The position numbers and the translations under genes are program-made. This document shows, one piece after another, positions 14,447 through 59,791 of a stretch of 64,000 nt of DNA. Origin of the DNA: Dehalococcoidia bacterium (GTDB lineage: Bacteria > Chloroflexota > Dehalococcoidia > GIF9 > AB-539-J10); contig PUON01000154.1 of NCBI GenBank assembly GCA_003552125.1, positions 21,965-85,964 on the forward strand, in the 5' to 3' direction. Each line of letters starts with the position of its first letter. Position 1 is the first letter of the stretch. The notes under the pieces were generated by a model that was not told the origin of the DNA, did not search any database, and worked only from the letters and a program-made list of their open reading frames with translations.

Positions 14447-15304
14447 TCAATTGCGGCCGTAGTCCTGTTCTTCGTCCTCGTCATCCTCGTCACCCTCATC
14501 TTCCTCTTCCCCCGGGTTCTGTTCCCAGATCGGCTCGGTGAACTGATCGATATATGCAGCCGTGGCCTGCTTTGATATTACGTCCATCTCCAACTCGGAC
14601 TGTCGGGATACCCCCTCAAGCTCATCGGTATCGATCTCAATATCCAGCATCTCGGCGAGTACGCTCAGTACGGCAAGAGCCGCCTTCGGATGTGCCATCT
14701 GCGTGGCAAATCCAGGCACCTCTCCCAACAGGCATAATCCATCGATGCCCCGCTCCTTTGCCCTTCCCAGAATGAGCCCGTTCAGCCCCGCGATCCGGAG
14801 CGTTCCTCGCAGTACGATCTTGTACCTGCTGAATTCCTCCAGCAGCTCGGGGCGTGTCGCCACGCCCCACACTTTCGTCTCCTCCGAATAATGAATCTTA
14901 GTCACTGCGGCGGCACAACTGTAGATACGGCTCACACCAAGTTGCTCTGCGGCATCGAGCACCGTTTCGACCATCTCGTATCCCCTCGGTCGTGGCTGTT
15001 CCTCCCCAATGAACAAGACGAGCCCGAGGCTCTTGTCCTCTTTCTCCCAGTAGTAGAACTTGCTCTCCGGGAACCTGGGTTCCTCAACAACGTTCTCTCT
15101 AACCATTACACCTACAGGCTCGAAGAAATGCACGGGGTCGATCTCCCCCACCTCACGTGCATCCAGCTTCTCTTTCAGATAACGTGCAAGGATGAGCGAC
15201 ACATTACCGATGCCCGGCCACGAAGCCAGCATGACACACCGGTCTACCTTTGGTGTCTCGGTAAGACTTATAGACACTCCCTTTTGCCCTCTGTGTTCCT
15301 TCAC
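14447..15304 (-). CDS. PAC2-family (proteasome-assembly-chaperone-like) protein with a poly-acidic C-terminal tail.
   Basis: N-terminal LASWPGIGNVSLILARYL G-rich motif typical of PbaA/PAC2. C-terminal EEEDEGDEDDEDEEQDYGRN. Start GTG 15304 lies 6 nt after AGGAGG and 1 nt after the pmbA stop. Confidence 0.7.
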   Translation of the reverse strand: MKEHRGQKGVSISLTETPKVDRCVMLASWPGIGNVSLILARYLKEKLDAREVGEIDPVHFFEPVGVMVRENVVEEPRFPESKFYYWEKEDKSLGLVLFIGEEQPRPRGYEMVETVLDAAEQLGVSRIYSCAAAVTKIHYSEETKVWGVATRPELLEEFSRYKIVLRGTLRIAGLNGLILGRAKERGIDGLCLLGEVPGFATQMAHPKAALAVLSVLAEMLDIEIDTDELEGVSRQSELEMDVISKQATAAYIDQFTEPIWEQNPGEEEDEGDEDDEDEEQDYGRN

Positions 15305-15306
15305 GC

Positions 15307-16617: not shown

Positions 16618-17984
16618 TACCGACCTCCTACCACGCACCGGCTGATTCGGATGTGGGGACTGCCGTTGGAGACCGGAAGTGGAGACTGACCCCCCTTTCC
16701 ACAACCTCCGCCCTGGTTCATATCCAGTTCATTGCCAATGGCATCGATACGCTCCAACGTGGTGAACACGTTCCCGGTCAATACGACGGGACGAAGCATT
16801 TCCGCCACCTCTCCGTTCCGAATCATGTACGCCTCTCCGGCGGAGAAAGTGAACATCTCGAGACTTGTCTGTCCACCATACCAGTCCTTGACGTACACGC
16901 CCTCTTCGATGTCTGCAAGCATGTCTGCCAGAGATACGTCCCCCGGCTCGATGTACGTGTTACTCATACGCACTATGGGCCCATGCCGATAGCTGATCGC
17001 CCTCGCATTGCCGGAGAATGGTTCTCGCATGCGCGCAGCAGTCTCACGTGAATGCAGCCTTCCTTCCAGAACGCCATCGTGTATGAGGGCAGTCCGTTGA
17101 CCTGGTGTTCCCTCATCATCGTAGGCGTAGCTGCCACGCAACGACGGCAGCGTGGCGTCGTCGACGATATTGAGGTGGCGTCCTCCAAACCTTCGACCCA
17201 GTACCATCAACTCCCTCAACTGTGGGTTGTGATACACAAGGTCTGCCTCGGACAGGTGTCCAAAAGCCTCGTGAGTGAACACGCCGGCCAGCACAGGATC
17301 AAGCACTACCGTGTACTCGCCACCTTTCAGGCTGTATGCATTGAGCAGGGATGCAGCACGTTGGGCCACATCGTGCGCCTGATCATGAAGCATCATAACG
17401 GGACCGAGATCTCCCACCGTGCCGACGCTCACGCCAGACTGCTGAACCTCATCTCCATCTCTTGCAATCGCAGTGAGTCTGAGAGACAGGTCGGGGACTT
17501 TCTGCTCGATGTAGGTGCCATCGGAAGACGAGTAGCGAACTGTCCTGTCGGTATCTCCATAGAGGATGTGTGAACTCTGAATGCGCGGGCTGGACATAAT
17601 GATGTCGTTGTACTCATCCAGCATCTGCTTCTTCTGCTCAAGCGACACCTGCGAGATGCTCACTGCGGGCAACGAGGTGACACTTGCCTCAACAGGCTCA
17701 CGTTCGGGCAATGACAGATGGTCCCCACTCGAATAGCGCGCTTCAGCGACTGCCTTGCGCACGCTGGCTTGAAGCGAATCCAGGTCGTTGAAGCTCGCGA
17801 ACCCCCATCCCCCATTCACCAGCGCACGGACGCATCCGCCACTGTCGCTCAGTATGCTGGCCTCCTCCAGTGTCCTACCACGATAGGAGATACGCGTGAC
17901 CATCCGCTCTTCCACACGGATGTCAACATGGTCGGCGCCATGACTTCGCAAAGCTTCGAACAGATGGTCTCTCATGGGGGTCAA
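16617..17984 (-). CDS. tldD: TldD metalloprotease.
   Basis: HEAFGH zinc motif. Family-level similarity to TldD. The start is either TTG 17984 or ATG 17975. Confidence 0.85.
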   Translation of the reverse strand: MTPMRDHLFEALRSHGADHVDIRVEERMVTRISYRGRTLEEASILSDSGGCVRALVNGGWGFASFNDLDSLQASVRKAVAEARYSSGDHLSLPEREPVEASVTSLPAVSISQVSLEQKKQMLDEYNDIIMSSPRIQSSHILYGDTDRTVRYSSSDGTYIEQKVPDLSLRLTAIARDGDEVQQSGVSVGTVGDLGPVMMLHDQAHDVAQRAASLLNAYSLKGGEYTVVLDPVLAGVFTHEAFGHLSEADLVYHNPQLRELMVLGRRFGGRHLNIVDDATLPSLRGSYAYDDEGTPGQRTALIHDGVLEGRLHSRETAARMREPFSGNARAISYRHGPIVRMSNTYIEPGDVSLADMLADIEEGVYVKDWYGGQTSLEMFTFSAGEAYMIRNGEVAEMLRPVVLTGNVFTTLERIDAIGNELDMNQGGGCGKGGQSPLPVSNGSPHIRISRCVVGGR

Positions 17985-35452: not shown

Positions 35453-36205
35453 ATGCTATTATCCTTAGCAGCGATGTCTACATTGCCTCGTCTCGTAGAG
35501 GGCCTTGCCGCACTGGACTTCCATCTCAGTTCAGCGCAGTTAGCCACGTTCGAAACCTATCGACAGGAACTGCTCCGTTGGAATCAGCACACCAATCTCA
35601 CGGCGATAATCGACCCGGTTGAGATCGAGGTCCGGCACTTCCTCGATTCGCTGACCATTCTCCAGGCGCTGAGGGATACGAATTACCACAATGAAATGAG
35701 AATCATCGATGTCGGTACTGGAGCGGGCTTTCCGGGCATTCCGTTGAAGGTGGTCCTCAACAACGCCCGGCTCGTGCTGCTGGAAGCAACGGAGAAGAAG
35801 GCGGCGTTTCTCTCACATGTAATAGAGGTGCTCGGCCTGGGTAATACAACGGTCCTTCATGGCAGGGCAGAGAAGCTGGCCCACGATCCCGCACACCGCG
35901 AGGCATACGATGTCGTCGTTTCGCGCGCAGTTGCGCCGCTAACCACACTGGCTGAGTTCTGCCTTCCCTTCACCTCTGTGGGCGGGCGGTTCATCGCACC
36001 GAAGAAAGGAGATGTGGGTACCGAGACTGCCGCTGCTCATTACGCCATTGACCTGCTTGGCGGAGGCAATCTGCAACTCATCGAAGTTCGCCTTCCGCAA
36101 TTGACCGACGGCCGGACGCTCGTAAGTGTTACCAAGTTGGCAACCTCACCCGGGCGTTATCCGAGACGCGACGGGATGCCGGCGAAACGCCCCCTTGAGG
36201 CCTGA
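35453..36205 (+). CDS. rsmG: 16S rRNA (guanine527-N7)-methyltransferase.
   Basis: GidB family. IDVGTGAGFPGIPLK. Confidence 0.85.
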   Translation: MLLSLAAMSTLPRLVEGLAALDFHLSSAQLATFETYRQELLRWNQHTNLTAIIDPVEIEVRHFLDSLTILQALRDTNYHNEMRIIDVGTGAGFPGIPLKVVLNNARLVLLEATEKKAAFLSHVIEVLGLGNTTVLHGRAEKLAHDPAHREAYDVVVSRAVAPLTTLAEFCLPFTSVGGRFIAPKKGDVGTETAAAHYAIDLLGGGNLQLIEVRLPQLTDGRTLVSVTKLATSPGRYPRRDGMPAKRPLEA

Positions 36206-36310
36206 CTCCTGCATCAGACAAGCCGTCGTGTTCATGACCACCGCCTTGCTGACTGAACCGCCCGGGCAAATGTGGTACGATACGGGCACACTTCAGGAAG
36301 GAGCGTTCGT

Positions 36311-37075
36311 ATGCAGCCGACACCGTTCTCTCTCGAGGGCAAAGTAGCGCTCATCACAGGCGGGGGAGGAGGAATAGGCAGACAGACTGCACTCTCAGTG
36401 GCAAAGGCTGGCGCCCATGTGGTACTTGCCGATATCAGCGACAACCTGGAATCAGTTGCCGAGGAGGTCAGGGCTCTTGGTCGGAATGCGCGCGCCATGC
36501 GCGTGGACGTGTCAGAGAATCCACAGATCTACGAAGCCGTCGCGGCCGCACAAGCGGAATTCGGCAGGATCGATATACTGGTCAACAACGCTGCGATGCA
36601 TCTCGTCGAGCGTTTCTCGGAAGGCTCACCTGAAAACTGGGACAAGTGCCTTCGCATCAACCTCCTGGGACAGATCGTCTTCTGCCACGCTGTCATGGGC
36701 GGCATGATAGAGCGCCGATCCGGCAAGATAGTGAACGTCGCCTCAGACGCAGGGAGGGTGGGGAGCCTGGGACAGGCGGTGTATGGCGCCTCCAAAGGGG
36801 GGCTCATCGCCTTCACGCGGAATCTGGCTGTGGAACTGGCGCGCTATCACATCAACGTCAACTGCGTCTCTCCCGGGCTCGTCAACACCGAGATGTGGAA
36901 CTCGACCCGCCGCGACAACCCCAAACTGGCTCACGCATACGAGAACACCGTCCTCTGGAAGCGACTGGGCGAACCCGAGGAGATTGCCGCGGCCATACTA
37001 TTCCTCGTGTCGCAGGAAGCAGAGTACATCACCGGTCAGACGTTGAGCGTTAACGGCGGAGTGTTCATAGCGTAG
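36311..37075 (+). CDS. SDR-family oxidoreductase (FabG-like).
   Basis: ALITGGGGGIGR Rossmann motif and a YxxxK catalytic motif. GGAAGGAG SD. Confidence 0.8.
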   Translation: MQPTPFSLEGKVALITGGGGGIGRQTALSVAKAGAHVVLADISDNLESVAEEVRALGRNARAMRVDVSENPQIYEAVAAAQAEFGRIDILVNNAAMHLVERFSEGSPENWDKCLRINLLGQIVFCHAVMGGMIERRSGKIVNVASDAGRVGSLGQAVYGASKGGLIAFTRNLAVELARYHINVNCVSPGLVNTEMWNSTRRDNPKLAHAYENTVLWKRLGEPEEIAAAILFLVSQEAEYITGQTLSVNGGVFIA

Positions 37076-37143
37076 GGCCGCCCCTTGCTCCGGAAGCAGC
37101 GGCTCCTGCAGATCGAGTCAATAGGCAAGGAGGAACGCGTCGC

Positions 37144-38001
37144 ATGGACATCAGGAGCATCGGTGTAGTTGGCTGCGGCTTGATGGGCTCTGGTATTGCG
37201 GAGATATCGGCCCGTGCCGGCTACCAGGTTGTCGTCACCGAGGTAACCGACGAGTTTCTGAAAAAGGGACTCGCCCGGATTGAAGCTTCGACACAGAAGG
37301 CCGTCGACAAGGGCAAATCAACCGCCGAAGAACGCGCGGACACCCTCTCCCGCATCAAAGGGTCGACCAGTCTTGAGGACCTCCAAGGGTGCCATCTCAT
37401 CATCGAGGCTGCCATCGAGCGGATGGATGAGAAGAAGAGGATCTTCAGCACCCTTGACAGCATCTGTCCGCCCGAAACCATACTGACAAGCAACACCTCG
37501 TCGCTCTCGATTACGGAAATAGCCGGCGCCACCACACGTCCGGATAGAGTTTTGGGACTGCATTTTTTCAGCCCGGTTCCCGTGATGAAGCTGCTTGAAG
37601 TGGTACGAACCTTGATGGTGAACGAAGACGTCGTCAATACGGGTGTTGCCTACGGCCAGGCCGTCGGCAAAGAGACGGTCGTCTGCAAGGATGCTCCGGG
37701 GTTCATCGTGAACCAACTCTACCTCCCGTATACGCTCGTTGCTGTCCGCCAGTGGGAGCGCGGGCTCGCCTCCAAGGAGGATATCGACAAGGCCATGATG
37801 CTGGGACTGAACTACCCCATGGGCCCGTTCACGCTCATGGATTTCGTGGGACTCGATATTCACTACAACGCGTGCATGGCCATTTACGAGGAGACACGGG
37901 ATCCCGCGTATTTCCCTCCACCGGTGCTCAAGAAGATGATTCAGGCGGGCCACCTGGGTCGCAAGACCGGCAAGGGGTTCTACGACTACAGCAGCAAATA
38001 G
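37144..38001 (+). CDS. hbd: 3-hydroxybutyryl-CoA (3-hydroxyacyl-CoA) dehydrogenase.
   Basis: IGVVGCGLMGSGIAE NAD-binding motif and a C-terminal 3HCDH domain. Confidence 0.85.
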   Translation: MDIRSIGVVGCGLMGSGIAEISARAGYQVVVTEVTDEFLKKGLARIEASTQKAVDKGKSTAEERADTLSRIKGSTSLEDLQGCHLIIEAAIERMDEKKRIFSTLDSICPPETILTSNTSSLSITEIAGATTRPDRVLGLHFFSPVPVMKLLEVVRTLMVNEDVVNTGVAYGQAVGKETVVCKDAPGFIVNQLYLPYTLVAVRQWERGLASKEDIDKAMMLGLNYPMGPFTLMDFVGLDIHYNACMAIYEETRDPAYFPPPVLKKMIQAGHLGRKTGKGFYDYSSK

Positions 38002-38053
38002 GAATCCGGCAGCGAAATCTGCGGCCGGATGAAGGAAGGAGTCAGTAACTAAT

Positions 38054-39469
38054 ATGACTGGAATAGTATCGTATGCAACCTATCTGCCAATGTATCGCCT
38101 CAGCCGTTCCGAGATCGGTCGCGCCTGGGGCACGGGAGGCAAGGGAGAGAAGGCCATAGCCAGCCATGACGAGGACAGCCTTACCATGGCCGTGGCCGCT
38201 GCACAGCAGTGCCTTGCGGGCCTGGACGCCAGCAAGGTCGATGGTGTCTACTTCGCCTCGACGACCGCCCCTTACCACGAGAAGCAGTCTGCCGCCACCA
38301 TCGCCGCCGTCCTCAATATGAATGCCGAGGTGTGCACCGTTGATTTTGGCAGATCTCTCAGATGTGGGACCAATGCACTGAGAGCAGCGGCCGATGCAGT
38401 CAGGAGCGGGTCCCTCAAAAACGTGCTGGTCCTCGTTGCGGATTGTCGTCTCGGACAACCGAACGGCGCCAACGAAATGGCTTTTGGCGATGGCGCCAGC
38501 GCGCTCCTCATAGGATCCGATAACGTGATCGCTTCGCTCGACTCAATGTACACATTAGCCGACGAGATCATTGACGTGTTCCGCTCCGACAAGGATCGTT
38601 TCGTGCGCACGTGGGAAGCGCGCTTCGTCCGAGACGACGGACACGGGCGCGTGGTTCCGCAGGCCCTGAAGGCCGCCATGGATAGAACCGGACTTTCTAT
38701 GGCGGATTTCGCCAAACTGGTTATGTACTCACCCGACCAGCGACAGCTTCAGGCGGTCAGCAAGTCGATGAAGCTGGATGCCGAGATCGTGCAGGATACT
38801 CTGTACAATCAGTTTGGCGACACCGGGGCTGCACAGGTATTTATCTCCCTGTGCGCAGCCATGGAGCAAGTGAAGGATGGCGACCGGATCCTGCTTGCAT
38901 CCTACGGAAATGGTGCCGACGTCATCACACTGACCGCCCAATCCGGTATCGCCTCTCGGAAACCTGCCCGGGGTATTGAGTACTACCTCAACACCAAGCT
39001 CATGATACCCACATACGAGAAATACCTTCGATGGCGCCAGATCATCGAGCTCGAGCCGCCGGCGACCGCCCCCATGGAACAACCTTCTCCGGTCGCGCTA
39101 TGGCGTGATAACAAGAGCGGACTGGACCTGCACGGAGTGAAGTGCCGCGCGTGCGGAACGCCGCAGTATCCGGCACAACGCGTGTGCATGGAGTGCGGCT
39201 CAAAGGATGACTTCGACGACTACGCGTTTTCAGACAAAGCTGCAGTTCTTGCTACATTTAGTCACGACAGCCTGGGTATCAGTGCGGATCCACCAACCAC
39301 TGTGGCAGCAGTCGATTTCGAGGGCGGCGGCAGGATCACCTGCGACATGACCGACCGCGATCCCTCGGAGATTCGAATCGGGATGCCGGTCGAGATGGTC
39401 TTCAGGGTGCTCAGGTACATCGGCGGGTTCTACACCTACTGGTGGAAGGCCCGACCGAAAAGGGATTAG
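38054..39469 (+). CDS. Archaeal-type HMG-CoA synthase-like condensing enzyme fused to a C-terminal DUF35 (Zn-ribbon/OB-fold) domain.
   Basis: N-terminus MTGIVSYATYLPMYRLS...DEDSLTMAVAAA (HMGCS fold). C-terminal ~120 aa CRACGTPQYPAQRVCMECGS...ITCDMTD resembles DUF35. Confidence 0.75.
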   Translation: MTGIVSYATYLPMYRLSRSEIGRAWGTGGKGEKAIASHDEDSLTMAVAAAQQCLAGLDASKVDGVYFASTTAPYHEKQSAATIAAVLNMNAEVCTVDFGRSLRCGTNALRAAADAVRSGSLKNVLVLVADCRLGQPNGANEMAFGDGASALLIGSDNVIASLDSMYTLADEIIDVFRSDKDRFVRTWEARFVRDDGHGRVVPQALKAAMDRTGLSMADFAKLVMYSPDQRQLQAVSKSMKLDAEIVQDTLYNQFGDTGAAQVFISLCAAMEQVKDGDRILLASYGNGADVITLTAQSGIASRKPARGIEYYLNTKLMIPTYEKYLRWRQIIELEPPATAPMEQPSPVALWRDNKSGLDLHGVKCRACGTPQYPAQRVCMECGSKDDFDDYAFSDKAAVLATFSHDSLGISADPPTTVAAVDFEGGGRITCDMTDRDPSEIRIGMPVEMVFRVLRYIGGFYTYWWKARPKRD

Positions 39470-39496
39470 GAACGTTAGCCTGATACGAGGTGAGAC

Positions 39497-40687
39497 ATGG
39501 AAGGAATCAAAGACAAAGTCGCAATCATCGGCATGGGCTGCTCCAAATTTGGAGAGAATTGGGACAAGAGCGCAGATGACATGATCATCGACGCCGTATA
39601 CGAAGCATACGAGGATGCGGGCATCGAATCGAAAGATATTGGTGCGGCCTGGCTCGGAACCTACGTTACCGAATGGACGGGACAGATGCTGTCACGGGCG
39701 CTTAAGCTTGATTACGTACCTGTGACACGGGTCGAGAACGCGTGTGCAACTGGGTCGGACGCATTGAGAAACGCCTGTTATGCAGTCGCGTCCGGTGCAT
39801 GCGATATCGCACTTGCGGTCGGTGTCGAGAAGCTCAAGGACTCGGGCTATACCGGACTGCCGGATTTCGAGTTGTTGCGCCGACAGAGCAACACGTATCG
39901 CACGAGAACGTACAGCCCTCCGGGACACTTCGCCATGATGGCGACGAAGTACTTCGACAAGTACGGGCTCGATCCCGAAGAGGGGAAGAGGATCATTGGG
40001 GAGATCGCCGTGAAGAATCATCATAACGGCGCCCTGGCCCCGAAGGCCCATTTCCAGTCCGAGACCACACTTGAGAAGGTGCTCGCGGCTCCGATGGTCG
40101 CCTGGCCTCTCGGCCTGTTCGACTGTTGTGGGGTGAGCGATGGCGCAGCGGCGGCAATCGTCACTCGGGCTGATCTGGCGGAGAAGTTCCGCGCAGATCC
40201 AGTCTACATCAAGGCGTTACAAATTGCCGTCGGCCCCTACGAGGGGTACATGAGCCCGAAGTACGACTGGGTTCACGTGGAGGAAACGGCACGCGCTGGA
40301 GAGCGTGCCTACGCTGAGGCCGGGATCAAAAACCCCCGCGAGGAAATCAGCATCGCCGAGGTGCACGACTGCTTCACCATCACCGAGCTCGTGATCATGG
40401 AGGATCTCAAGTTCAGCGAGCGCGGCAAGGCCGCCGATGACGTCAGAAGCGGCTTCTTCCACCTCGACGGAGGCCTGCCTGTGAACACGGATGGCGGACT
40501 GAAGTGCTTCGGCCACCCCATTGGTGCGAGCGGCCTGCGTATGATGTACGAGGTGTACAAGCAGCTGCAGCAAAAGGCGGACAAGCGGCAGATCAAGAAT
40601 CCGCGACTCGGATTGACGCACAACCTTGGGGGGACGCCCGCCACCTGTAGCGTGAGCGTCATCATCGCGGGCAACGAGAAAGGCTAG
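39497..40687 (+). CDS. Archaeal-type thiolase (acetyl-CoA C-acetyltransferase, SCP-x-like).
   Basis: [13 protein letters not shown]...[11 protein letters not shown]-terminal GHPIGASG motif. Confidence 0.8.
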
Positions 40688-40722
40688 AAGACAATCGCTA
40701 TCGTCAGAGAATGAATAGCGAA

Positions 40723-40750
40723 GGGGCCGCTGGTAGCAGCGGCCCTTTTG
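40723..40750 (+). terminator. Intrinsic terminator after the thiolase gene.
   Basis: GGGGCCGCUG-GUAG-CAGCGGCCCU then UUUUG. Confidence 0.7.
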
Positions 40751-40783
40751 TCGCAATATCACCACCATCCTTCGCGCATACCT

Positions 40784-40812
40784 TTGCGTCCGGGGGAGAC
40801 CTGACCTATAAT
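40784..40812 (+). promoter_or_regulatory. Putative pdxS promoter (leaderless).
   Basis: TTGCGT, a 17-nt spacer, then a perfect TATAAT (40807-40812) 6 nt before the ATG at 40819. Confidence 0.4.
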
Positions 40813-41708: not shown

Positions 41709-43130
41709 TTGCGACAGGTAGTAGCCGACAAACTGGACGCGCTCCTCGAGGTGCTGCCGCCCCACATACGTGAACTCTTGACTGAGCAGGCACGCATCAA
41801 CGATCTGCTTGAGGTCGTCATGGATCTCGGTGCTCCCCCGGAAGCCCGTTTCCCCCAAGGTGAGGTTATCATAAGCGACAAGGAGGTCGACCAGCACGAC
41901 ATCGCCTTCGTCGTCGGCCGGATAGGCGAGTTTACCTCTGACAACAGGGCGGGCATTGAACGGACGCTGCATCGAATCTCCGCAATGCGCAACCGCCGAG
42001 GTACGATTGTCGGGCTTACCTGCCGCGTCGGGCGCGCAGTGTTCGGGATGGTCGACATGATAGCCGACCTTATTGAATCGGGACAGAACATCCTGCTCCT
42101 GGGCAGGCCGGGGGTTGGTAAGACAACGATGCTTCGAGAATCTGCGAGGGTGCTCGCCGATTCAGCAAGGAAGAGAGTGGTCGTCATCGATACCTCAAAT
42201 GAGATCGCCGGAGATGGCGATATCCCGCATCCCGCAATAGGCCACGCCAGGAGAATGCAGGTGCCGACACCCGAGAGGCAGCATTCGGTGATGATCGAGG
42301 CGGTGGAAAACCATATGCCGGAGGTTATCGTTATCGACGAGATCGGCACTGAGCTTGAGGCACAGGCGGCCCGGACCATCGCAGAGCGGGGAGTGCAACT
42401 CATCGGCACCGCACATGGTAACAATCTCGAGAATCTTATACTAAATCCAACGCTGTCCGACCTCGTGGGCGGCACTCAGTCGGTTACTCTTGGCGACGAA
42501 GAGGCGCGCAGGCGCCATACGCAGAAATCCATTCTTGAACGCAAGGCTCCGCCGACATTCGATGTTGTGGTCGAGATACTCGGCTTCTACCGCGTGTCGG
42601 TACATACAGATGTGCAGGAGGCGGTGGACGGCATTCTCACCCGGAAGCCGACACGAACTGAATCGCGCTGGGTTGAGAGTAACGATGAGGTCCGTAAGGA
42701 GACCGTGCTCTCTTCGCACACAGGCGCCGCCACAGCGCAGGAAGAAGAGCTTGTACCTCCGAGCTCGCCACGCGACCGTGCAGTGAAGGTGTTTCCCTTC
42801 GGCGTTAACCGTAATCGGCTTGAGACCGTTGCAAGGCGGGAGCGCACCAATATTCAGATCGTAGACGATCTGGATGCATCCGATCTCTTTCTGACTACCC
42901 GGACTCACTATCGGCGTAAGCCACAGCGGGTTCGGGATGCCGAAGCGCTCGGGATCCCGATCTATGCCCTGAAAGGGAATGACCTCCACCAGATGCGACA
43001 ATGCCTTCATGCGGTTGCTCCGGGACTCTCCCGCTCCAGCTATGTCCACCAGTTGCAGGAACTGCTGAACGAGGGCAAGGGCGAAGGAGAGAAACGACCG
43101 CGGACGAAGAGCCCAAGGAGGGGCGGCTGA
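41709..43130 (+). CDS. SpoIIIAA/ycf45-like P-loop ATPase with a C-terminal R3H-like nucleic-acid-binding region.
   Basis: Walker A GRPGVGKTT. Walker B VIVIDEIGT. ...LIGTAHGNNLENL... The TTG start is tentative. Confidence 0.6.
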   Translation: MRQVVADKLDALLEVLPPHIRELLTEQARINDLLEVVMDLGAPPEARFPQGEVIISDKEVDQHDIAFVVGRIGEFTSDNRAGIERTLHRISAMRNRRGTIVGLTCRVGRAVFGMVDMIADLIESGQNILLLGRPGVGKTTMLRESARVLADSARKRVVVIDTSNEIAGDGDIPHPAIGHARRMQVPTPERQHSVMIEAVENHMPEVIVIDEIGTELEAQAARTIAERGVQLIGTAHGNNLENLILNPTLSDLVGGTQSVTLGDEEARRRHTQKSILERKAPPTFDVVVEILGFYRVSVHTDVQEAVDGILTRKPTRTESRWVESNDEVRKETVLSSHTGAATAQEEELVPPSSPRDRAVKVFPFGVNRNRLETVARRERTNIQIVDDLDASDLFLTTRTHYRRKPQRVRDAEALGIPIYALKGNDLHQMRQCLHAVAPGLSRSSYVHQLQELLNEGKGEGEKRPRTKSPRRGG

Positions 43131-46968: not shown

Positions 46969-48678
46969 TCAAGCGGTCTCGATGCCGGCTGCCTTCTCCA
47001 GACCCAGTTCCTTGATCGCCACCTCTCGCATCTTGAACTTCTGTATCTTCCCGGTGACGGTCATGGGGTACTCGGTCACGAACTTAACGTATCGCGGTAT
47101 CTTGTAGTGGGCTATCCTGCCCTTGCAGAACTCCCGTATCTCCTCCTCGGTCGCCGTCTCGCCTTCCCGGAGCTCTATCCACGCCTGGATCTCCTCACCG
47201 TATTTCTCGTCCGGCACGCCGATGATCTGGACGTTCTTGATCTTGGGGTGGGTAAACAGAAACTCTTCGATCTCCCTCGGGTAGATATTCTCGCCACCGC
47301 GAATGATCATCTCTTTCGCGCGTCCCGTGATTCTGCAGTAGCCTCTCTCGTCCATGGTCGCAAGGTCGCCGCTGTGGAGCCAGCCAGCTTCGTCGATGGC
47401 CTCGCTCGTACCCTCGGGGTTGTTGTAGTAGCCACGCATAATGTTGTAGCCCCGATAGCAGATCTCCCCCTGTGCGCCGCACGGCACTATGGCGCCTGTT
47501 TCCACATCGATGACCTTCAGTTCAACGTGCGGTGATGCCCGGCCAACGGTACCCGTGCGATCTTCGATCGACGCATCCACGGATGTCTGGGTCGCGATGG
47601 GAGAAGCCTCGGTCTCACCATAGCCGATCGTCACCTGTGATGCATGCATCTTAGTGATCACCTTCTTCATAACCTCGATCGGGCAGGGTGCGCCAGCCAT
47701 GATGCCGGTGCGCAGTGATGACAGGTCGAAAGAGTCGAAGTCCTCGTGCTCCAGCTCGGCGATGAACATTGTCGGCACACCATGCAGCGCCGTGCAGCGC
47801 TCCTGCTGCACGGCCCGAAGCGTCGCCCCAGGATCGAAGCTCTCCGCGGGCAGCACCATGGTCGCCCCGTGGGTCATGCAGGCCAGGTTGGCGAGCACCA
47901 TGCCGAAGCAGTGGTAGAAAGGCACCGGGATACACAGGCGGTCCGTGTGCTTCAGCAGCATACCCTCTCCGGCAAAGAAGCCGTTGTTGAGAATGTTGTG
48001 GTGCGTCAGGGAGGCCCCCTTTGGCATTCCCGTGGTACCCGACGTGTACTGAATATTGATGACATCATCAACGTCGAGCGATGCCTGCCGCTCTTCCAAG
48101 TCACCATCCGCGATGTCATTGCCGAGCTCCAGGAACCGGTCCCAAGAATAGATGCCGGGGTGTTCTTCCTGCTCAAGCAGGATAGCCGCCTTCATGAGCG
48201 GCAGTTTCGCTGCCTTCAACTCCCCGGGGCTGGAGTCTTTCGTCTCGGGACAGACGTCATAGAACATGGAGACGTAGTTGGACGACTTGAACCGCTCGAT
48301 CAGGAACAGGGCACTCGTCTCGGAATTCCCCAGCGCGTATTCAAGCTCGTGCGTCCGGTACGCAGGATTGATATTGACGAGTACCGCTCCCATGATCGCC
48401 GTGCCGAACTGCACCAGCACCCACTCGGGATGATTGGTGGCCCAGATAGCGACACGGTCTCCGCGCTTAATACCGAGCTTCATGAGCGACTTGGCCACAC
48501 GCCGACAGTCATCCCTCAACTCCGCATACGTCCAGCGCCGACCAGAAGGCACGTCGACCAGTGCATCATTATCGGGGTGCTGCGCGACGATGCGGTCGAG
48601 ATAGTCCGGTATGGTATGGCCAATGAGCGGCGTCTCAGAAACGCCATGAGAATAGCTTAATGGGACCGATTGAGCCAT
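46969..48678 (-). CDS. AMP-dependent acyl-CoA synthetase/ligase (FadD-like).
   Basis: [14 protein letters not shown]-binding motif. AGGAGG SD. Confidence 0.85.
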
Positions 48679-51782: not shown

Positions 51783-51906
51783 CGTGCTCTCGAGGTATTC
51801 TAACAGAAAGCGTAGCTGGCGCACACACACGAGGGGTTTGACACGGTTGTCACGGTGTGGTGGACTGTACCTGTAAGTCTTGCACATACCAAGGAGGATT
51901 CACTCG

Positions 51907-52989
51907 ATGACGATCAGAGTTGCTGCAGTTCAGGCATCCCCGGTCCTGCCGATCAACAGAGAAGCAACGGTCGATAAGGCGTGCTCGCTTATACGGGAGG
52001 CCGGCAGCAATGGCGCGCGGCTGGTGGTTCTGCCGGAGACCTTCATCCCGATGTACCCCAACTGGTCTATCGACCTCAGCAACCCGATGGAGTGGCCCAG
52101 GAACCTGCTGGCACTCACGCGTAACTCAATCCAGGTCCCGGGGCCGGAGACCGCCAGGCTCTGCGAAGCTGCGGGATCAGCACAGGCCTGTGTTTGCATC
52201 GGGGTAAACGAGTATCTGCCGCTCTACGAGGGGATGCTGTTTAACTCTCTCGTATTCATCGATGCCGATGGCACGCTGCTTGGAGTGCACCGAAAGCTCA
52301 CACCGTCGAATCGCGAGCGGTGCTTCTGGGCACGTGGCGACGGCACATCGCTTCGCGTCTACGATACAGCCGTCGGCCGTCTGGGAGGACTGATCTGCTA
52401 CGAGCATCTGCAGCCTCTCAACAAGTACTCGCTTATGGCGCAGGGAGAGCAGATCCATTGCACCTGCTGGCCGGGCTGGCCGAACTTCCCCAACGGCAGA
52501 ACGAACAAACACGTCTTCGATGTCCAGACGCGCTCGTACGCAATCGAGGGACAGTGCTTCGTAGTGGCTTCATCAATGTACATTAACCCTGCCGAAGGTG
52601 AGCGCGCCGGGCTCGGCAACGCCAGTTGGACGTTCTTCGGCGGCAGCATGATCGTGGGGCCGGAGGGCGACTATGTAGCGGAGCCGGTGTACGATAAGGA
52701 AGCCATTCTCTACGGCGACATCGATCTCGACCGCATCGTGCTACGCAAAGCAGCCGTCGACCTCACCGGAAAGGATCATCGCTGGGACGTGCTACGCATC
52801 GAAAACAACGCCCGTCCATATGCGCCGTTCACCGGCACCCACGGCAGCCAGATCTCTGCGGAGATGGGGATTAACCTCCCAGAGTGCGCGCAACGAGGCG
52901 GCGATGCCGGCGACCGGTTGCGGGTTGTGGAGGCCGAACTGCAACGGCTGAGAGAGCAGCTTGAAGGCGGTCAGCGTACGTTTTCTTGA
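51907..52989 (+). CDS. Nitrilase / carbon-nitrogen hydrolase family protein (paralog 1).
   Basis: IRVAAVQ...LVVLPE(T)...GLICYE gives the Glu-Lys-Cys triad. AAGGAGGA SD. C-terminal coiled-coil extension. Confidence 0.8.
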   Translation: MTIRVAAVQASPVLPINREATVDKACSLIREAGSNGARLVVLPETFIPMYPNWSIDLSNPMEWPRNLLALTRNSIQVPGPETARLCEAAGSAQACVCIGVNEYLPLYEGMLFNSLVFIDADGTLLGVHRKLTPSNRERCFWARGDGTSLRVYDTAVGRLGGLICYEHLQPLNKYSLMAQGEQIHCTCWPGWPNFPNGRTNKHVFDVQTRSYAIEGQCFVVASSMYINPAEGERAGLGNASWTFFGGSMIVGPEGDYVAEPVYDKEAILYGDIDLDRIVLRKAAVDLTGKDHRWDVLRIENNARPYAPFTGTHGSQISAEMGINLPECAQRGGDAGDRLRVVEAELQRLREQLEGGQRTFS

Positions 52990-53090: not shown

Positions 53091-53468
53091 TTGTATGCGC
53101 TGGGAAGACATCTTCTTATAGAGCTAAAGGGCTGCAACACAAACCTGCTAGATGATCTCGAGTTCCTCAGCGAGTGCCTCCATTCCGCAGCAGTCCGATG
53201 CGGCGCCACAGTAGTCGGAGATTCGTTCTATCATTTCTCCCCACAGGGCGTGAGCGGCGTGGTGAACATCGCCGAATCGCACCTGTCCATTCACACCTGG
53301 CCTGAGTGTGGCTACGCCGCTGTGGACGTTTTCACGTGCGGAGACAAGGTTGAACCCGAGGAAGCAGCACGGGCGATCATGCAGTCAGTGGAGGCAACGG
53401 ATTGCTCTCTGGTCGAGCTTCGCCGCGGACTGCTCCAGGCGAGCCCGGCGCAGGGCGCACAAGTATGA
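53091..53468 (+). CDS. speH: S-adenosylmethionine decarboxylase proenzyme (SpeH type).
   Basis: MYALGRHLLIELKGCN... AESHLSIHTWPE processing motif. TTG start after AAGGAGGGAAGG. Confidence 0.8.
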   Translation: MYALGRHLLIELKGCNTNLLDDLEFLSECLHSAAVRCGATVVGDSFYHFSPQGVSGVVNIAESHLSIHTWPECGYAAVDVFTCGDKVEPEEAARAIMQSVEATDCSLVELRRGLLQASPAQGAQV

Positions 53469-54388
53469 ACGACAACTTACCTCCCAAACGTACCTGGTTC
53501 TACGATGCTCTGACCCCCGATCTCGGGATAGCGCATCGCGTCGATGACTTTCTGTATTCGGGAAGGAGCGACTACCAGGGTATCGAGATCATCCGGACAC
53601 GCAGTTTCGGCACGTGCCTGGTACTCGACGGCAAGATACAGTCGAGCGAGGCGGACGAGTTCATCTATCATGAGGCGCTCGTCCATCCGGCCATGATCGC
53701 TCACCCCCAGCCACGAAAGGTTCTCATCGCCGGGGGGGGTGAGGGAGCCACACTGCGGGAGATTCTGCGCCACCACTCGGTGGAGCAGGCAACGATGGTA
53801 GACCTGGACGAACAGGTAGTCGCCATCTGCCGCCAGTTCCTGCCTTCCTTCAGCGACGGAGCATTCCAGGACCCTCGAACGGAATTCATCGTCGGCGACG
53901 CGCGACGATTCGTCGAAGACAGCCCGCGTACGTTTGACGTCATAGTGATCGATCTGCCGGACCCCCTCGAAGTTGGCCCGGCACAGTTGCTCTACACCTG
54001 CGAGTTCTACTCTGCTGCAAGGAACCGACTGGCGCCCGGAGGCATCATCAGCGTCCAGACGGAATCCTCACGATGGTACGACCTCGATGCGTTCGTGGCA
54101 ATCGTCCGCACCATCCGCGAGGCTTTCCGATTCGTGGCACCATATCAGGTTCACGTACCCTCCTTCTCGAGCCTCTGGGGCTTCGTAACGGCGTCAGACT
54201 CACTGAGACCGGAGACGTTGTCGGTCGGAGAAGTCGACCGCCGCATCGCTCAGAAGCTGCGGCGCGAACTTCGCTCCTACGATGGGACTTCGCACCGAAG
54301 TATGTTCTCCCTTCCGAAGCACATACGAACCGCTGTCGACAACGCCGAAACGATAATCACCGACAACTCCCCCCTGTCGGTGTACTGA
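53465..54388 (+). CDS. speE: Spermidine synthase (polyamine aminopropyltransferase).
   Basis: ...VLIAGGGEGATLRE...VIVIDLPDP. ATGA overlap with speH. Confidence 0.85.
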   Translation: MNDNLPPKRTWFYDALTPDLGIAHRVDDFLYSGRSDYQGIEIIRTRSFGTCLVLDGKIQSSEADEFIYHEALVHPAMIAHPQPRKVLIAGGGEGATLREILRHHSVEQATMVDLDEQVVAICRQFLPSFSDGAFQDPRTEFIVGDARRFVEDSPRTFDVIVIDLPDPLEVGPAQLLYTCEFYSAARNRLAPGGIISVQTESSRWYDLDAFVAIVRTIREAFRFVAPYQVHVPSFSSLWGFVTASDSLRPETLSVGEVDRRIAQKLRRELRSYDGTSHRSMFSLPKHIRTAVDNAETIITDNSPLSVY

Positions 54389-56663: not shown

Positions 56664-58349
56664 GTGGAACTCCGTGTGCTTTCTCCCGACGTCGTTTCGC
56701 GCATCGCAGCCGGTGAAGTTGTCGAGCGCCCCGCATCCATCGTCAAGGAACTCGTCGAGAATTCCATCGATGCGGGAGCCGACAGGATCGACATTGAGTG
56801 CAGTGGTGGCGGTGCAGCACTCGTCTGCGTCGCCGATAACGGACAGGGCATACCTGCAGAGCAGGTCGACATGGCGTTCCTTCGCCACGCGACAAGCAAG
56901 ATCGCATCGCTGGATGATCTGGTAAATGTACATTCGCTCGGCTTCAGGGGGGAGGCATTACCAAGCATCGCGGCTGTTGCGGACGTCGAGGTCTCAACCA
57001 GCATCGGAGATGCAGTTCCCGGCACCTACCTCTACATGCGTGGAGGCACCATCCAGCACCACGAAAGCAGACCCCGGGCGAGGGGAACTACGATTGCGGT
57101 ACGGCGGTTGTTCCGGCACTTCCCGGCGCGACTCAAGTTCCTCAAGGCGGAGTCGACCGAGAACGGACATAGTGCGCAGGTGGTGAGCCAGTATGCACTG
57201 GCGTATCCGTCTCTTGCCTTCAGCCTCCTCCTTGAGGACCGGGTGGCACTGCGAAGCACTGGAAATGGAGACCTTCGCGATGTCGTAGCGGGCCTCTTCG
57301 GTGCCGAACTGGCGCGTGCCATGGTCCCGGTTGAGTACGCATCAGAACGGTTGAGCGTTGCCGGGCTTGCAGCCCCTGCTTCTCTTTCCAGGGCCGGACG
57401 GTCACACCAGAGCACGTTCATCAACCACAGATGGGTTCGCAGCCCATTGCTTCAGAGAGCGATCGACGAAGCCTATCGCGGGATGCTGCATGAGGGGAGG
57501 AACCCCATCGCCATTCTGAACCTGGATCTACCCCCGAACCGCGTCGACGTCAACGTGCACCCAAGTAAGGCACAGGTGAAGTTCGCCGATGAACAGGAGG
57601 TCTTCAGGGCCGTCCGCGAGGCGTTGAAGGGGGCTCTGGCGAGGACGAGCGTGGCGACTGACTCGCGGCATATCTCCCTGTCCTCAGGGGGTACCCAGGG
57701 CGCATGGCTCGTTGCCGAGGCTACGCAAGACAGCGCCTACCCGCCCGCTGCAGCAGAACCCACCACCGGCGCCGGATCTCTGCCTCCTTTGCGCGTCCTC
57801 GGACAGATACGTAATACCTACGTCGCTGCTGAGGGACCGGATGGGCTCTACCTCATAGATCAGCATGCAGCACACGAACGGGTAGTCTACGATCGCCTCA
57901 TCGGCAGGCGCACGGGACATGAGATCGAGGTCCAGGGATTGCTTGAGCCAATCGCCATTGAGCTGACACCGGCCGAGGATGCCACCCTCAGCACTATAAT
58001 GGACAGATTGACTGAAGTGGGCTTCGCAATCGAGGCTTTCGGCAGTCGAACCTATCTACTGCGGAGCTTTCCGGCCGTCATAGGAGAGGCGGACGTCGTC
58101 GACATTGTACACGACCTGCTGCGGGAGTTGACGGACGTCAACCAGCGGGGTGTATACGAACGACTCGCCACCTCTATCGCGTGTCATGCCGCGGTTCGAG
58201 CTGGCAAGCACCTCGCGACGGAAGAGATGCGGCACCTGATTCGGCAACTCGAGGCTTCCACGCAGCCGCGCACGTGCCCGCATGGCCGCCCCACTGTGGT
58301 GCGATTCGACGAGGCACAGCTCGAGAAGATGTTCGGTCGGCGCACCTAG
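56664..58349 (+). CDS. mutL: DNA mismatch repair protein MutL.
   Basis: RIAAGEVVERPASIVKELVENSIDAG GHKL ATPase. Endonuclease motif in the C-terminal domain. TTGACT-17-TAAACT upstream suggests a near-leaderless GTG start. Confidence 0.85.
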   Translation: MELRVLSPDVVSRIAAGEVVERPASIVKELVENSIDAGADRIDIECSGGGAALVCVADNGQGIPAEQVDMAFLRHATSKIASLDDLVNVHSLGFRGEALPSIAAVADVEVSTSIGDAVPGTYLYMRGGTIQHHESRPRARGTTIAVRRLFRHFPARLKFLKAESTENGHSAQVVSQYALAYPSLAFSLLLEDRVALRSTGNGDLRDVVAGLFGAELARAMVPVEYASERLSVAGLAAPASLSRAGRSHQSTFINHRWVRSPLLQRAIDEAYRGMLHEGRNPIAILNLDLPPNRVDVNVHPSKAQVKFADEQEVFRAVREALKGALARTSVATDSRHISLSSGGTQGAWLVAEATQDSAYPPAAAEPTTGAGSLPPLRVLGQIRNTYVAAEGPDGLYLIDQHAAHERVVYDRLIGRRTGHEIEVQGLLEPIAIELTPAEDATLSTIMDRLTEVGFAIEAFGSRTYLLRSFPAVIGEADVVDIVHDLLRELTDVNQRGVYERLATSIACHAAVRAGKHLATEEMRHLIRQLEASTQPRTCPHGRPTVVRFDEAQLEKMFGRRT

Positions 58350-59791
58350 CCATTGCGGGCCGCAAGCTCCCGATTCCTCCGCGAGTACCGCTCGAACCTG
58401 ATAGTGGATCTCGCCGCGTGCCGAATCGAGTTGTATACGGGAATACCCGCCCTATAGCATTTCTCACGGGCATGCACCAGCCAGTCATAGTGCTCGGGAA
58501 ACGTCACCATCTGGATCACCACAACCACCGGCTTCCCAAAATCACGGTATCCTCGCACCACATCGTCCACCAACTTGTCCCATATCTCCTCATGAAGCTC
58601 GGGTGGCCGCGCAATGAGTCCCACCGAGAAGTGCACTATTGAGAAGTCGATATCCCTGTACTCGCTGAAGACCTTGAGCACCGGGTAGTAGCCCACCGCC
58701 CATGCTTGCGCCGAGAGATCCATCGGATTGTTGATGATCGTGCCCGCCTCGGAGCCAAGCAGCCCGGCAGTGCGTCTGCGCATCTCCTCCGGGAACCCCG
58801 GGATCTCCAGTCCCTCATTGTTCGCCTCATCGCCAGCAAGCACGGTGGCCCCCCCGCCGAGACCAAGCAGCGCCACTTTCCTCCCCATGGGCTTCTTGAA
58901 GAAGCTGAACGTGACCGCCATATCGATCCACTCTTCGATGGTGTGCACACGAACAGCGTTCACCTGGTGCAGCAGGCCTTCCCACACCTTGTCTGCTCCG
59001 GCGAGGGAGCCGGTATGTGACGCCGCTGCCCGAGCGCCAGACTCGCTGGTGCCGACCTTCAACATGATAACCGGTTTTCGCCGCGCGGCACGCTCAAGTG
59101 CCTTCTTGAAGCGGAACCCGTCCTTCACACCCTCGATATACGCCATGATGATCCTCGTGTCGGGATCATCGGCCATGTACTCCATCAGGTCGGTTTCGTT
59201 CACATCGCTCGCGTTACCGTACGACACCACTTTGCTGAAGCGCACACCACGACGCGCAGCTTCGCGGGCAACATAGATAGCGTTGCCCCCACTCTGGCAG
59301 ATGGCACCGACCGGCCCACTCTCGTTGCAGAGGTCGGCGAGAAACGATATTCCGGATCCGGGACAGTACACACCCATACAGTTAGGGCCGATGACCCGAA
59401 TCCCGTACTGGCGCGCCACTGCGAGCACATCCTTCTCGAGTTGTATACCCTCGGGCTGCCCCAGCTCAGAGAACCCGGACGTAAAGAAGTGAATCGCTTT
59501 CACTCCCTTCGCGGCGCAATCGTTCGTCAACTGCAGTGCACCGGCAGCTGGTATTGAGGATATGACGTAGTCGACCGGACCCGGGATATCCCTAACACTC
59601 GGGTACACAGTGAGCCCCCGCATCTCTCCACCCCTCGGGTTTACCGGGTAGAGTTGCCCTTTGAACCCGCACCTCATCATCGCATCGAGATAACCATTGC
59701 CGCCCAACTGGCTGGGACCTGCTTTCGTAGAGACTCCCACGATTGCAATCGACCGTGGATTGAAGACGGCGTCGAGATTGGATGTGCTCAT
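58346..59791 (-). CDS. ADP-forming (NDP-forming) acyl-CoA synthetase, alpha-type CoA-binding/ligase protein.
   Basis: Succinyl-CoA-synthetase-like CoA-binding and ligase-CoA domains. Confidence 0.75.
   Translation of the reverse strand: MSTSNLDAVFNPRSIAIVGVSTKAGPSQLGGNGYLDAMMRCGFKGQLYPVNPRGGEMRGLTVYPSVRDIPGPVDYVISSIPAAGALQLTNDCAAKGVKAIHFFTSGFSELGQPEGIQLEKDVLAVARQYGIRVIGPNCMGVYCPGSGISFLADLCNESGPVGAICQSGGNAIYVAREAARRGVRFSKVVSYGNASDVNETDLMEYMADDPDTRIIMAYIEGVKDGFRFKKALERAARRKPVIMLKVGTSESGARAAASHTGSLAGADKVWEGLLHQVNAVRVHTIEEWIDMAVTFSFFKKPMGRKVALLGLGGGATVLAGDEANNEGLEIPGFPEEMRRRTAGLLGSEAGTIINNPMDLSAQAWAVGYYPVLKVFSEYRDIDFSIVHFSVGLIARPPELHEEIWDKLVDDVVRGYRDFGKPVVVVIQMVTFPEHYDWLVHAREKCYRAGIPVYNSIRHAARSTIRFERYSRRNRELAARNG

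Follow-up and report, generated by a model that had tools for sequence, protein, structure and literature searches.

Does a bacterium that carries a relative of 3-hydroxy-3-methylglutaryl-CoA (HMG-CoA) synthase, fused to a DUF35 domain and followed by a thiolase, make HMG-CoA, and if not, what is such a module for? The question is raised by a four-gene operon starting at position 36311 of a 64 kb stretch of contig PUON01000154.1 (assembly GCA_003552125.1, Dehalococcoidia bacterium); the whole of this stretch of 64,000 nucleotides is what we call the window. The operon lies between RsmG (35453-36205) and PdxS and consists of four co-directional open reading frames (ORFs) on the + strand, which encode a short-chain dehydrogenase/reductase (SDR), a 3-hydroxyacyl-CoA dehydrogenase (Hbd), the fusion of an HMG-CoA synthase (HMGS)-like domain with DUF35, and the thiolase. 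A preliminary description had likened these modules to the archaeal complex of thiolase, HMG-CoA synthase and DUF35, had taken the fusion for an HMGS-like enzyme, and had proposed a non-mevalonate route, either of the beta-oxidation kind or based on 3-hydroxy-3-methylglutaryl chemistry. That interpretation is partly supported: the complex-type ancestry and the non-mevalonate role were right, and the HMG-CoA synthase activity was wrong. Judged by its residues, the N-terminal domain of the fusion is an HMGS-fold pseudo-enzyme and not an HMG-CoA synthase (EC 2.3.3.10). We read the operon as the last two steps of a short-chain beta-oxidation-type or acetoacetyl-CoA route, with a probability of roughly 0.65.

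The first part of the question is answered by the active site. When the N-terminal HMGS/PhlA-type domain of the 471-aa fusion (residues 1-330, 38054-39043, within the whole ORF at 38054-39469, + strand) is aligned by phmmer with the HMGS of M. thermolithotrophicus (6esq_I), Thr70 takes the place of the Glu in GSES, Leu102 that of the nucleophilic Cys in FACKAG, Tyr225 that of the His in FHQPN, and Asp256 that of the Asn in GNTY. The tetrad residues are likewise lost in PhlA (9skh_A). Among the 120 best database relatives (52-100% identity to the query; the PhlA reference was counted along and is among the minority residues, and there is one alignment gap at the Glu column), position 70, that of the catalytic Glu, is T in 116, A in two, V in one, and C in one. 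Position 102 (catalytic Cys) is L in 119, I in one, and G in one; position 225 (catalytic His) is Y in 109, N in six, and another residue in six; and position 256 (catalytic Asn) is divided between D (59), N (59), and E (3). A set of 80 fusion-thiolase pairs from species-level genomes gives the same picture, with T at the Glu position in 80 of 81 sequences; the Cys position is occupied by L, V, I, or T and in no case by Cys. Even the homologues on Novosphingobium and Rhodococcus plasmids, only 32-35% identical, and the one from Bathyarchaeia show this tetrad loss, and none of about 200 relatives checked has a Cys at the nucleophile position.

Curated family models agree with the alignment. The fusion scores below the cut-off on all three HMGS models of NCBIfam (NF003274, 224.1 vs 244 bits; TIGR00748, 166.9 vs 353; TIGR01835, 84.7 vs 360), and FabH models give 71-76 bits vs cut-offs of 249-292. 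Because the E-C-H-N tetrad is replaced and the curated HMGS cut-offs are missed, we do not regard the fusion as an HMG-CoA synthase; a genuine enzyme of that kind was ruled out on these two grounds. The proposal of HMG-CoA synthase activity in the preliminary description thus falls with the missing catalytic triad (T70, L102, and Y225). Nor is the domain of the 3-ketoacyl-acyl carrier protein synthase III (KAS III) type, the other possibility raised there: the canonical Cys position is a Leu, and a shifted nucleophile at Cys104 was ruled out as well, since that column is not conserved and holds C, S, A, or G among the relatives. With the tetrad lost across the family, HMG-CoA synthesis, HMG chemistry, and channelling into an HMGS site are not to be expected. 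Of the route proposed earlier, the part based on 3-hydroxy-3-methylglutaryl chemistry is therefore lost with the tetrad, and the beta-oxidation-like part is supported.

The loss of the active site has left the architecture in place. The N-terminal part matches Pfam ACP_syn_III_C, and its phmmer matches in the PDB are PhlA 9skh_A (1e-34), archaeal HMGS 6esq_I (2.6e-32), and PhlA 5m3k_A (3e-30). An AlphaFold2 (AF2) model of the fusion, computed with 70 relatives as input, reached a predicted local distance difference test (pLDDT) score of 86 and a predicted TM-score (pTM) of 0.89. It has two folded parts and a linker that is disordered around residues 334-353 (pLDDT below 50 at 334-336 and 342-353). 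Foldseek places this model closest to the HMGS subunits 6esq_I and 6et9_I (E about 2e-28, target TM-score 0.86-0.89), followed by PhlA (9skh, 5mg5, 5m3k) and MucA (9vbo). The N-terminal domain is accordingly modelled with an HMGS-type fold of the thiolase superfamily, and the kinship with the archaeal complex that the preliminary description had seen is borne out. The flexible linker (about residues 331-360, 39044-39133, + strand) is the least conserved segment of the fusion, with 33% identity in distant pairs.

Beyond the linker, the C-terminal region is assignable to DUF35, as the preliminary description had it, by a zinc ribbon and an OB fold that both score above their Pfam cut-offs. The rubredoxin-like zinc ribbon (residues 361-385, 39134-39208, +) matches zf-ChsH2 (PF12172) with 30.5 bits vs a cut-off of 23.2, and consists of C364xxC367...C378xxC381. 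These four cysteines are invariant in all 120 database relatives, in the alignment of the species-genome pairs, and in the plasmid and archaeal relatives. The OB fold (residues 387-468, 39212-39457, +) matches OB_ChsH2_C (PF01796) over residues 397-451 with 43.5 bits vs 27.1 and appears in the AF2 model as an all-beta segment whose strands lie between residues 387 and 468. In the PDB, residues 347-467 match the DUF35 subunit 6esq_E at 1.3e-12. An identical fusion protein is encoded on contig PWZS01000204.1 of assembly GCA_003567335.1.

The thiolase (396 aa, 39497-40687, +) is the other half of the answer. It matches Pfam Thiolase_N and Thiolase_C_1 and scores 588.7 bits vs a cut-off of 403 on NF004810, an equivalog model named "acetyl-CoA acetyltransferase". 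Its best PDB match is 6esq_A, the thiolase of the archaeal complex (5.6e-61, 210 bits), with PhlC at about 1e-25 (about 90-97 bits); BbsB (7pxp_C) is matched at 2.5e-44. We describe it as an SCP2/archaeal-type 3-ketoacyl-CoA (acetoacetyl-CoA) thiolase. The SCP2-type motifs, namely Cys83, H290-D-C-F293, and G339-H340 (GHP), are all present, and Cys83, HDCF, and GH are invariant in 78 of the 78 partner thiolases aligned. By these motifs, the active site is intact, and the thiolase is predicted to be the sole condensing or thiolytic catalyst of the operon. In distant pairs, it is also the better conserved partner, with 60% identity vs about 46% for the HMGS-like domain. The latter is nevertheless far from free to drift: the replacement residues T70 and L102 are near-invariant, a pattern that indicates clear purifying selection on the dead domain.

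Upstream of this pair stand the two dehydrogenases. Hbd (285 aa, 37144-38001, +) is classified as an (S)-3-hydroxybutyryl-CoA or 3-hydroxyacyl-CoA dehydrogenase by its Pfam matches (3HCDH_N, 6.5e-62; 3HCDH, 1.9e-31) and by NF005875 "3-hydroxybutyryl-CoA dehydrogenase" (344.4 bits vs a cut-off of 319). The SDR (254 aa, 36311-37075, +) is a classical member of its family (adh_short, 2e-61; adh_short_C2, 1e-64) with the sequence YGASK. It passes the cut-off only of the generic NCBIfam subfamily PRK07231, reaching 245 bits vs 431 on BadH, and its nearest PDB relatives are the (3R)-hydroxyacyl-CoA dehydrogenase 2et6, BbsD (7pcs_B), and FabG enzymes. It is thus a candidate (3R)- or substituted 3-hydroxyacyl-CoA dehydrogenase. 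An Asp (D41) ends its strand beta-2, which, from general knowledge of SDRs, we take to be a sign of NAD(H); the enzyme is probably NAD-dependent.

That the four genes form a unit is evident from their layout. The order SDR-Hbd-fusion-thiolase, the coordinates, and the spacing of 27 nt between fusion and thiolase given in the preliminary description are exact per the ORF map; the preceding gaps are 68 nt (SDR/Hbd) and 52 nt (Hbd/fusion). All four genes have a Shine-Dalgarno-like motif 5' of their ATG, and the SDR start is better placed at the ATG at 36311, which has AGGAG 7 nt upstream, than at a GTG at 36272. The terminator reported earlier is confirmed. Directly after the thiolase, an intrinsic-terminator-like hairpin of 15 bp spans 40718-40751 (+), with its GC core at 40724-40745 and its U-run at 40746-40749. 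RNA folding of 40705-40765 gives it -29.2 kcal/mol (z = -5.2; none of 200 shuffles was as stable). The GC core, GGGCCGCUG/CAGCGGCCC, is followed by UUUUGU, so that the U-tract is short. A scan for consensus terminators found nothing on the + strand after the thiolase because the U-run pairs with upstream A residues in an extended stem. The operon is closed by this Rho-independent-type terminator, a GC-rich hairpin with a U-tract, and with its short gaps and Shine-Dalgarno motifs it is structurally sound. On the promoter side, a scan of the + strand came up empty upstream of the SDR; by eye, an extended -10-like TGgTACGAT can be seen at 36273-36281, which is weak evidence.

The gene that follows shows a peculiarity of its own. 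With its start at 40711, the longest PdxS ORF would run through the terminator hairpin of the operon; PdxS family models start at residue 35-45 of this ORF. The true start is likely the ATG at 40819, which has no Shine-Dalgarno motif and is preceded, 6 nt upstream, by a perfect TATAAT (40807-40812). Because the TATAAT lies so close and the Shine-Dalgarno motif is missing, the pdxS mRNA is a candidate leaderless transcript.

How far does the module extend beyond this locus? A pattern scan over one genome per species, with the relatives confirmed, found the fusion in at least 593 species-level genomes, of which 80 loci were kept for locus analysis. These come mainly from Dehalococcoidia and other Chloroflexota, with Actinomycetota, Desulfobacterota ("delta"), Armatimonadota, Nitrospinae, Peptococcaceae, and one Bathyarchaeia among the other hosts. 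In 78 of these 80 loci, the thiolase is the gene directly downstream of the fusion; in one of the remaining two, the contig ends just past the fusion, and in the other the gene order is reversed. The pairing of fusion and thiolase genes is obligate. The upstream SDR-Hbd pair, on the other hand, is confined to the clade to which the query belongs (at least 76% identity), where the block RelA-RsmG / SDR-Hbd-fusion-thiolase / PdxS-SpoIIIAA-like-Tmk is kept in seven related Dehalococcoidia genomes. In distant Dehalococcoidia loci (L032, L039, L045, L056, and L083), RsmG adjoins the fusion-thiolase pair on the opposite strand, which may be a remnant of old synteny.

Elsewhere, the neighbourhoods point in one direction. 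Acyl-CoA dehydrogenase (ACAD), enoyl-CoA hydratase (ECH), or Hbd genes lie within 10 kb in 33 of the 80 loci, counts that come from single-sequence phmmer queries on naive ORF calls, with many short loci, and are descriptive, with no background control. One locus (L003) holds a complete SDR-ACAD-ECH-Hbd-fusion-thiolase operon. In cultured degraders, the pair lies within catabolic gene clusters: the Novosphingobium sp. ES2-1 plasmid p3 has the order ACAD-SDR-fusion-acetyl-CoA acetyltransferase (ACAT)-ECH-ECH...Ltp-DUF35-P450-TetR-FadD3, and pDK3 of Rhodococcus DK17 has fusion-ACAT-thiolase-SDR-crotonase. In another locus (L002, 10653-14707), the genes for the two subunits of an ADP-forming acyl-CoA synthetase come after the pair, and a BKACE gene and SDRs are found close by. 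The pattern is, descriptively, consistently beta-oxidation-like. At least nine loci carry more than one fusion gene, in most cases as fusion-thiolase pairs in tandem, and such whole-pair expansion suggests co-evolving partners with different substrates. Literature searches on this family in Dehalococcoidia and syntrophs, and on DUF35 and SCP2 in anaerobic beta-oxidation, found nothing specific.

Several observations from these loci are worth recording in their own right. Synthetase subunits (ATP-grasp_5; CoA_binding_2 + Succ_CoA_lig) and/or BKACE follow the pair in L002, L013, L016, and L018, and these neighbours hint at acetoacetate or acetyl-CoA-to-ATP metabolism. Tandem pairs, which many genomes of Dehalococcoidia and Chloroflexota contain, were seen in L032, L036 (divergent), L039, L042, L048, L056, L059, L068, L069, and L083, some of them with copies on other contigs. 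A 35%-identical fused homologue (L085, NZ_CP063448.1, 133596-152960) sits in a steroid-type catabolic cluster with a FadD3 resembling HIP-CoA ligase, and there the fused DUF35 system stands beside a free DUF35 that accompanies a lipid-transfer protein. The Bathyarchaeia metagenome-assembled genome (MAG) contig JAWBZV010000008.1 (L077, 7084-11410) has a tetrad-less fusion with the thiolase upstream, in the order Hbd-ECH-thiolase-fusion; this copy could be an inter-domain transfer or a bin contamination.

What, then, would the operon do? The reading that we favour begins with Hbd, which would oxidise (S)-3-hydroxyacyl-CoA to 3-ketoacyl-CoA, and with the SDR, which probably oxidises another 3-hydroxyacyl-CoA, the (R) isomer or a substituted one. 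The fusion protein would dock onto the thiolase as a non-catalytic partner and scaffold; the archaeal, PhlACB, and MucABC complexes are the analogues from which we infer that such a physical complex forms here. The thiolase complex would then cleave 3-ketoacyl-CoA with CoA to acetyl-CoA and a shortened acyl-CoA, or, with acetoacetyl-CoA as the substrate, to two acetyl-CoA. Thiolysis is taken as the natural direction because no active HMGS pulls the unfavourable condensation, in line with what was measured for PfACAT/HMGS-DUF35 of P. fluorescens (Liao et al., Nat Commun 2026, PMC12960953). This complex formed neither HMG-CoA nor acetoacetyl-CoA when given acetyl-CoA, and cleaved acetoacetyl-CoA thiolytically, a cleavage nearly abolished by H294Y in HDxF (PMC12960953). 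We infer both the thiolytic direction and the substrate chain length.

Several points weigh against this reading. The direction is not fixed, for thiolases and Hbd are reversible, and the sole assay was made in vitro with a distant Pseudomonas member. Neither the operon nor the 64 kb window contains an ACAD or ECH gene, which means that no full beta-oxidation cycle is encoded locally. The NAD preference of the SDR is suggested by a single residue, D41. Finally, the purifying selection on the dead domain may mean that this domain does more than hold the complex together.

The most serious competitor reverses the direction. The thiolase complex might condense acetyl-CoA, or acyl-CoA with acetyl-CoA, and the reduction by Hbd and/or SDR would pull the reaction in place of the dead HMGS, which is unable to do so, as in a reverse-beta-oxidation, butyrate/polyhydroxybutyrate-type, or acyl carrier protein-independent fatty-acid route. 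Hbd homologues do work reductively in butyrate fermenters, and the thiolase pair shares a transcript with the SDR and Hbd in an operon that has no ACAD or ECH and is stably inherited amid housekeeping and biosynthetic genes. In S. acidocaldarius, moreover, a ketothiolase (KT)/DUF35 pair with an SDR and a MaoC protein provides a precedent (bioRxiv 10.1101/2024.07.05.601840). The operon itself, however, encodes no dehydratase or enoyl reductase, and the Pf member of the same architecture gave thiolysis only, though no reductase was coupled in that assay (PMC12960953). The neighbours elsewhere are mostly catabolic, namely ACAD, ECH, FadD3, and the ADP-forming acyl-CoA synthetase (ATP harvested from acetyl-CoA), and D41 of the SDR suggests NAD rather than NADPH. 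We therefore hold the biosynthetic direction to be possible and clearly the less probable of the two.

Other proposals would give the module a different chemistry. It might act on bulky or unusual CoA esters as a specialised enzyme that depends on DUF35, being a thiolase like BbsAB or a retro-aldolase like Ltp2 or Sal and not a general acetoacetyl-CoA thiolase; the SDR would be its dedicated dehydrogenase. The SDR does resemble BbsD and BadH-type dehydrogenases, the thiolase matches BbsB, distant fused homologues lie in steroid- or xenobiotic-type clusters with FadD3, Ltp, DUF35, and P450, and the tandem paralogous pairs suggest substrate diversification. A retro-aldolase would generally be expected to show altered thiolase motifs, and here all of them are intact (the Cys83 nucleophile and the Cys in HDCF included), as befits a true thiolase. 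Hbd belongs to a butyryl-type family above its cut-off, NF004810 is passed by a wide margin, and no aromatic or steroid genes lie near the operon, so that this proposal seems improbable. Still further down stands a genuine thiolase/HMG-CoA synthase/DUF35 channelling complex that makes HMG-CoA for the mevalonate pathway or another HMG-based route. Fold and overall sequence are nearest to the archaeal HMGS, the thiolase is nearest to 6esq_A, DUF35 is present, and databases name the relatives "hydroxymethylglutaryl-CoA synthase". Against this, not one of the four catalytic residues is kept, and the nucleophile Cys is missing from every relative checked; the fusion stays below both archaeal HMGS cut-offs of NCBIfam; and the window has no HMG-CoA reductase (HMGR) or GHMP kinase. 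Archaeal tetrad mutants and the tetrad-less Pf complex, furthermore, made no HMG-CoA (PMC12960953), and we give the idea next to no credence. Equally slight is the chance that the module is a Friedel-Crafts C-acyltransferase of the PhlACB/MucABC type, one that serves secondary metabolism by acetylating a small-molecule acceptor. The N-terminal domain matches PhlA best, and tetrad loss is common to both, including an Asp at the Asn position. PhlC and MucB, however, have no HDxF (PMC12960953), and HDCF is invariant here; the thiolase fits the archaeal ACAT far better than PhlC (210 vs about 90-97 bits); and the flanks hold housekeeping genes, with no polyketide synthase (PKS) or non-ribosomal peptide synthetase (NRPS). 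A PhlACB-like acyltransferase was ruled out on the HDCF of the thiolase and on the lack of PKS/NRPS neighbours.

A further possibility concerns the dead domain itself rather than the direction of the pathway. Liao et al. regard the Pf-type class as an "evolutionary intermediate" without a defined pathway (PMC12960953). This view does not explain the purifying selection, the strict pairing, or the tandem duplication. The domain might instead be an obligatory functional subunit, which keeps the CoA chamber at the thiolase interface and might set the acyl-chain specificity, or which docks Hbd and the SDR for the channelling of 3-hydroxyacyl-CoA, 3-ketoacyl-CoA, and acetyl-CoA. The purifying selection (T70 and L102 included), the strict pairing, and the repeated tandem duplication of the pair are compatible with this idea, which we offer tentatively and think rather unlikely. 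If it were true, the module would be a bacterial beta-oxidation (or reverse) metabolon on the scaffold of the archaeal mevalonate complex, analogous to the KT/DUF35/SDR/MaoC assembly of Sulfolobus.

The remainder of the window gives little further context. In a Pfam survey of about 45 of its ORFs, the rest of the 64 kb contained only housekeeping, amino-acid, and nucleotide genes. As the preliminary description had noted for the vicinity of the operon, no HMG-CoA reductase or mevalonate kinase is present: the survey found neither HMG-CoA reductase nor GHMP kinase, the mevalonate genes, in the window, which is a statement on the window and not on the genome. PKS, NRPS, aromatic, or steroid genes are likewise missing near the operon. 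An AMP-binding acyl-CoA synthetase is encoded at 46969-48678 (-). An ACD-alpha-like protein (CoA_binding_2 + Succ_CoA_lig, 481 aa; 58346-59791, -) lies 18 kb downstream of the operon and is of the same type as the genes found directly 3' of the fusion-thiolase pair in other genomes. The place directly behind pdxS is taken, in each of the seven related genomes, by the gene for a 473-aa protein (41709-43130, +) in which a SpoIIIAA-like P-loop ATPase region is joined to a PTPase-family domain (PF25516) at the C-terminus. A PAC2-family protein, homologous to the proteasome assembly chaperone, adjoins two tandem TldD/PmbA metallopeptidase paralogues (14447-15361, -; 15307-17984, -). Two CN_hydrolase (nitrilase-superfamily) genes flank a spermidine-synthase region (51880-52989, +; 53402-54388, +; 61053-62096, -), and together these genes may form a polyamine route of the N-carbamoylputrescine amidase type. 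Two ORFs that overlap each other at 264-1722 (+), one of 211 and the other of 298 aa, gave no match to Pfam at 1e-5.

The main practical value of these results lies in the annotation. NCBI and JGI label relatives of the fusion as "hydroxymethylglutaryl-CoA synthase (family protein)", which is misleading and should be corrected, as it could lead to the mistaken inference of a mevalonate entry step when the metabolism of Dehalococcoidia, Actinomycetota, and Desulfobacterota MAGs is reconstructed. Our hypothesis is that many anaerobes and xenobiotic degraders have the fusion-thiolase pair as a standard thiolase module for beta-oxidation. The family is also a clean case of a conserved pseudo-enzyme kept as the partner of an active enzyme of paralogous fold. 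The architecture as such was already described; this locus adds a member from Dehalococcoidia, and no major paradigm is changed.

A comparison with known systems places the operon more precisely. In the benzoylsuccinyl-CoA thiolase BbsAB, the aldolases ChsH2(DUF35)-Ltp2 and Shy-Sal, and the KT/DUF35 fatty-acid synthase complex of S. acidocaldarius, as is predicted here, DUF35 binds an SCP2-type thiolase-fold enzyme, and it can recruit other enzymes of the pathway. The S. acidocaldarius pair, which drives condensation, has an SDR ketoacyl-CoA reductase and a MaoC dehydratase bound to it (bioRxiv 10.1101/2024.07.05.601840). An SDR dehydrogenase is thus a pathway partner in the Sulfolobus system, as it is in the Bbs system (BbsD). 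None of these four, however, carries an HMGS-fold pseudo-enzyme on its DUF35 polypeptide. In steroid systems, DUF35 is fused to a MaoC hydratase instead, and in oestrogen degradation a MaoC-DUF35 protein (AedL) works with the Ltp2-like AedK, an arrangement different from the HMGS-DUF35 fusion (PMC8913865).

Closer are the complexes that contain all three modules. According to published accounts, DUF35 bridges the thiolase-fold and HMGS-fold subunits of the archaeal complex, PhlACB, and MucABC, and the two folds share an interfacial CoA chamber that is kept even in the tetrad-less PhlACB and MucABC. With PhlACB (P. protegens, 5M3K/5MG5) and MucABC (S. macacae, 9VBO), our locus has in common a tetrad-less HMGS-like subunit and a zinc-ribbon/OB scaffold. 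These two are Friedel-Crafts acyltransferases that have lost HDxF and whose thiolase subunit has gained acceptor-binding residues (PMC12960953); their three subunits are separate and encoded in secondary-metabolite clusters, whereas HDCF is invariant here. The archaeal thiolase/HMGS/DUF35 complex has the same three modules, provides the best structural matches, and keeps HDxF in its thiolase. It differs from our operon in that the HMGS site is dead here, DUF35 is fused and not free, the mevalonate context is missing, and the host is a bacterium. When its tetrad was replaced, the archaeal complex no longer formed HMG-CoA (PMC12960953). With a dead HMGS active site, acetoacetyl-CoA would not be channelled into HMG-CoA by the Dehalococcoidia proteins.

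The closest counterpart is the bacterial ACAT/HMGS-DUF35 class. Liao et al. counted 1,030 bacterial loci with co-localised HMGS, ACAT, and DUF35, of which 1,001 are "orphan", that is, without secondary-metabolism neighbours (PMC12960953). In PfACAT/HMGS-DUF35, the fused HMGS-DUF35 has no E-C-H-N tetrad and the ACAT has Cys, HDxF, and GHx (PMC12960953). Our locus likewise has the HMGS fold and DUF35 on one polypeptide, a lost tetrad, an adjacent SCP2-type ACAT with Cys, HDxF, and GHx retained, and no PKS/NRPS neighbours. All the sequence-level features of the class are thus present, and we assign the locus to it by architecture and motifs. Unlike the Pf member, it comes from another phylum (a Dehalococcoidia MAG), and its pair is co-transcribed with Hbd and an SDR. 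Together, the conservation, the paralogy, and the beta-oxidation neighbourhoods argue for a working catabolic module, as opposed to the published view of an "evolutionary intermediate".

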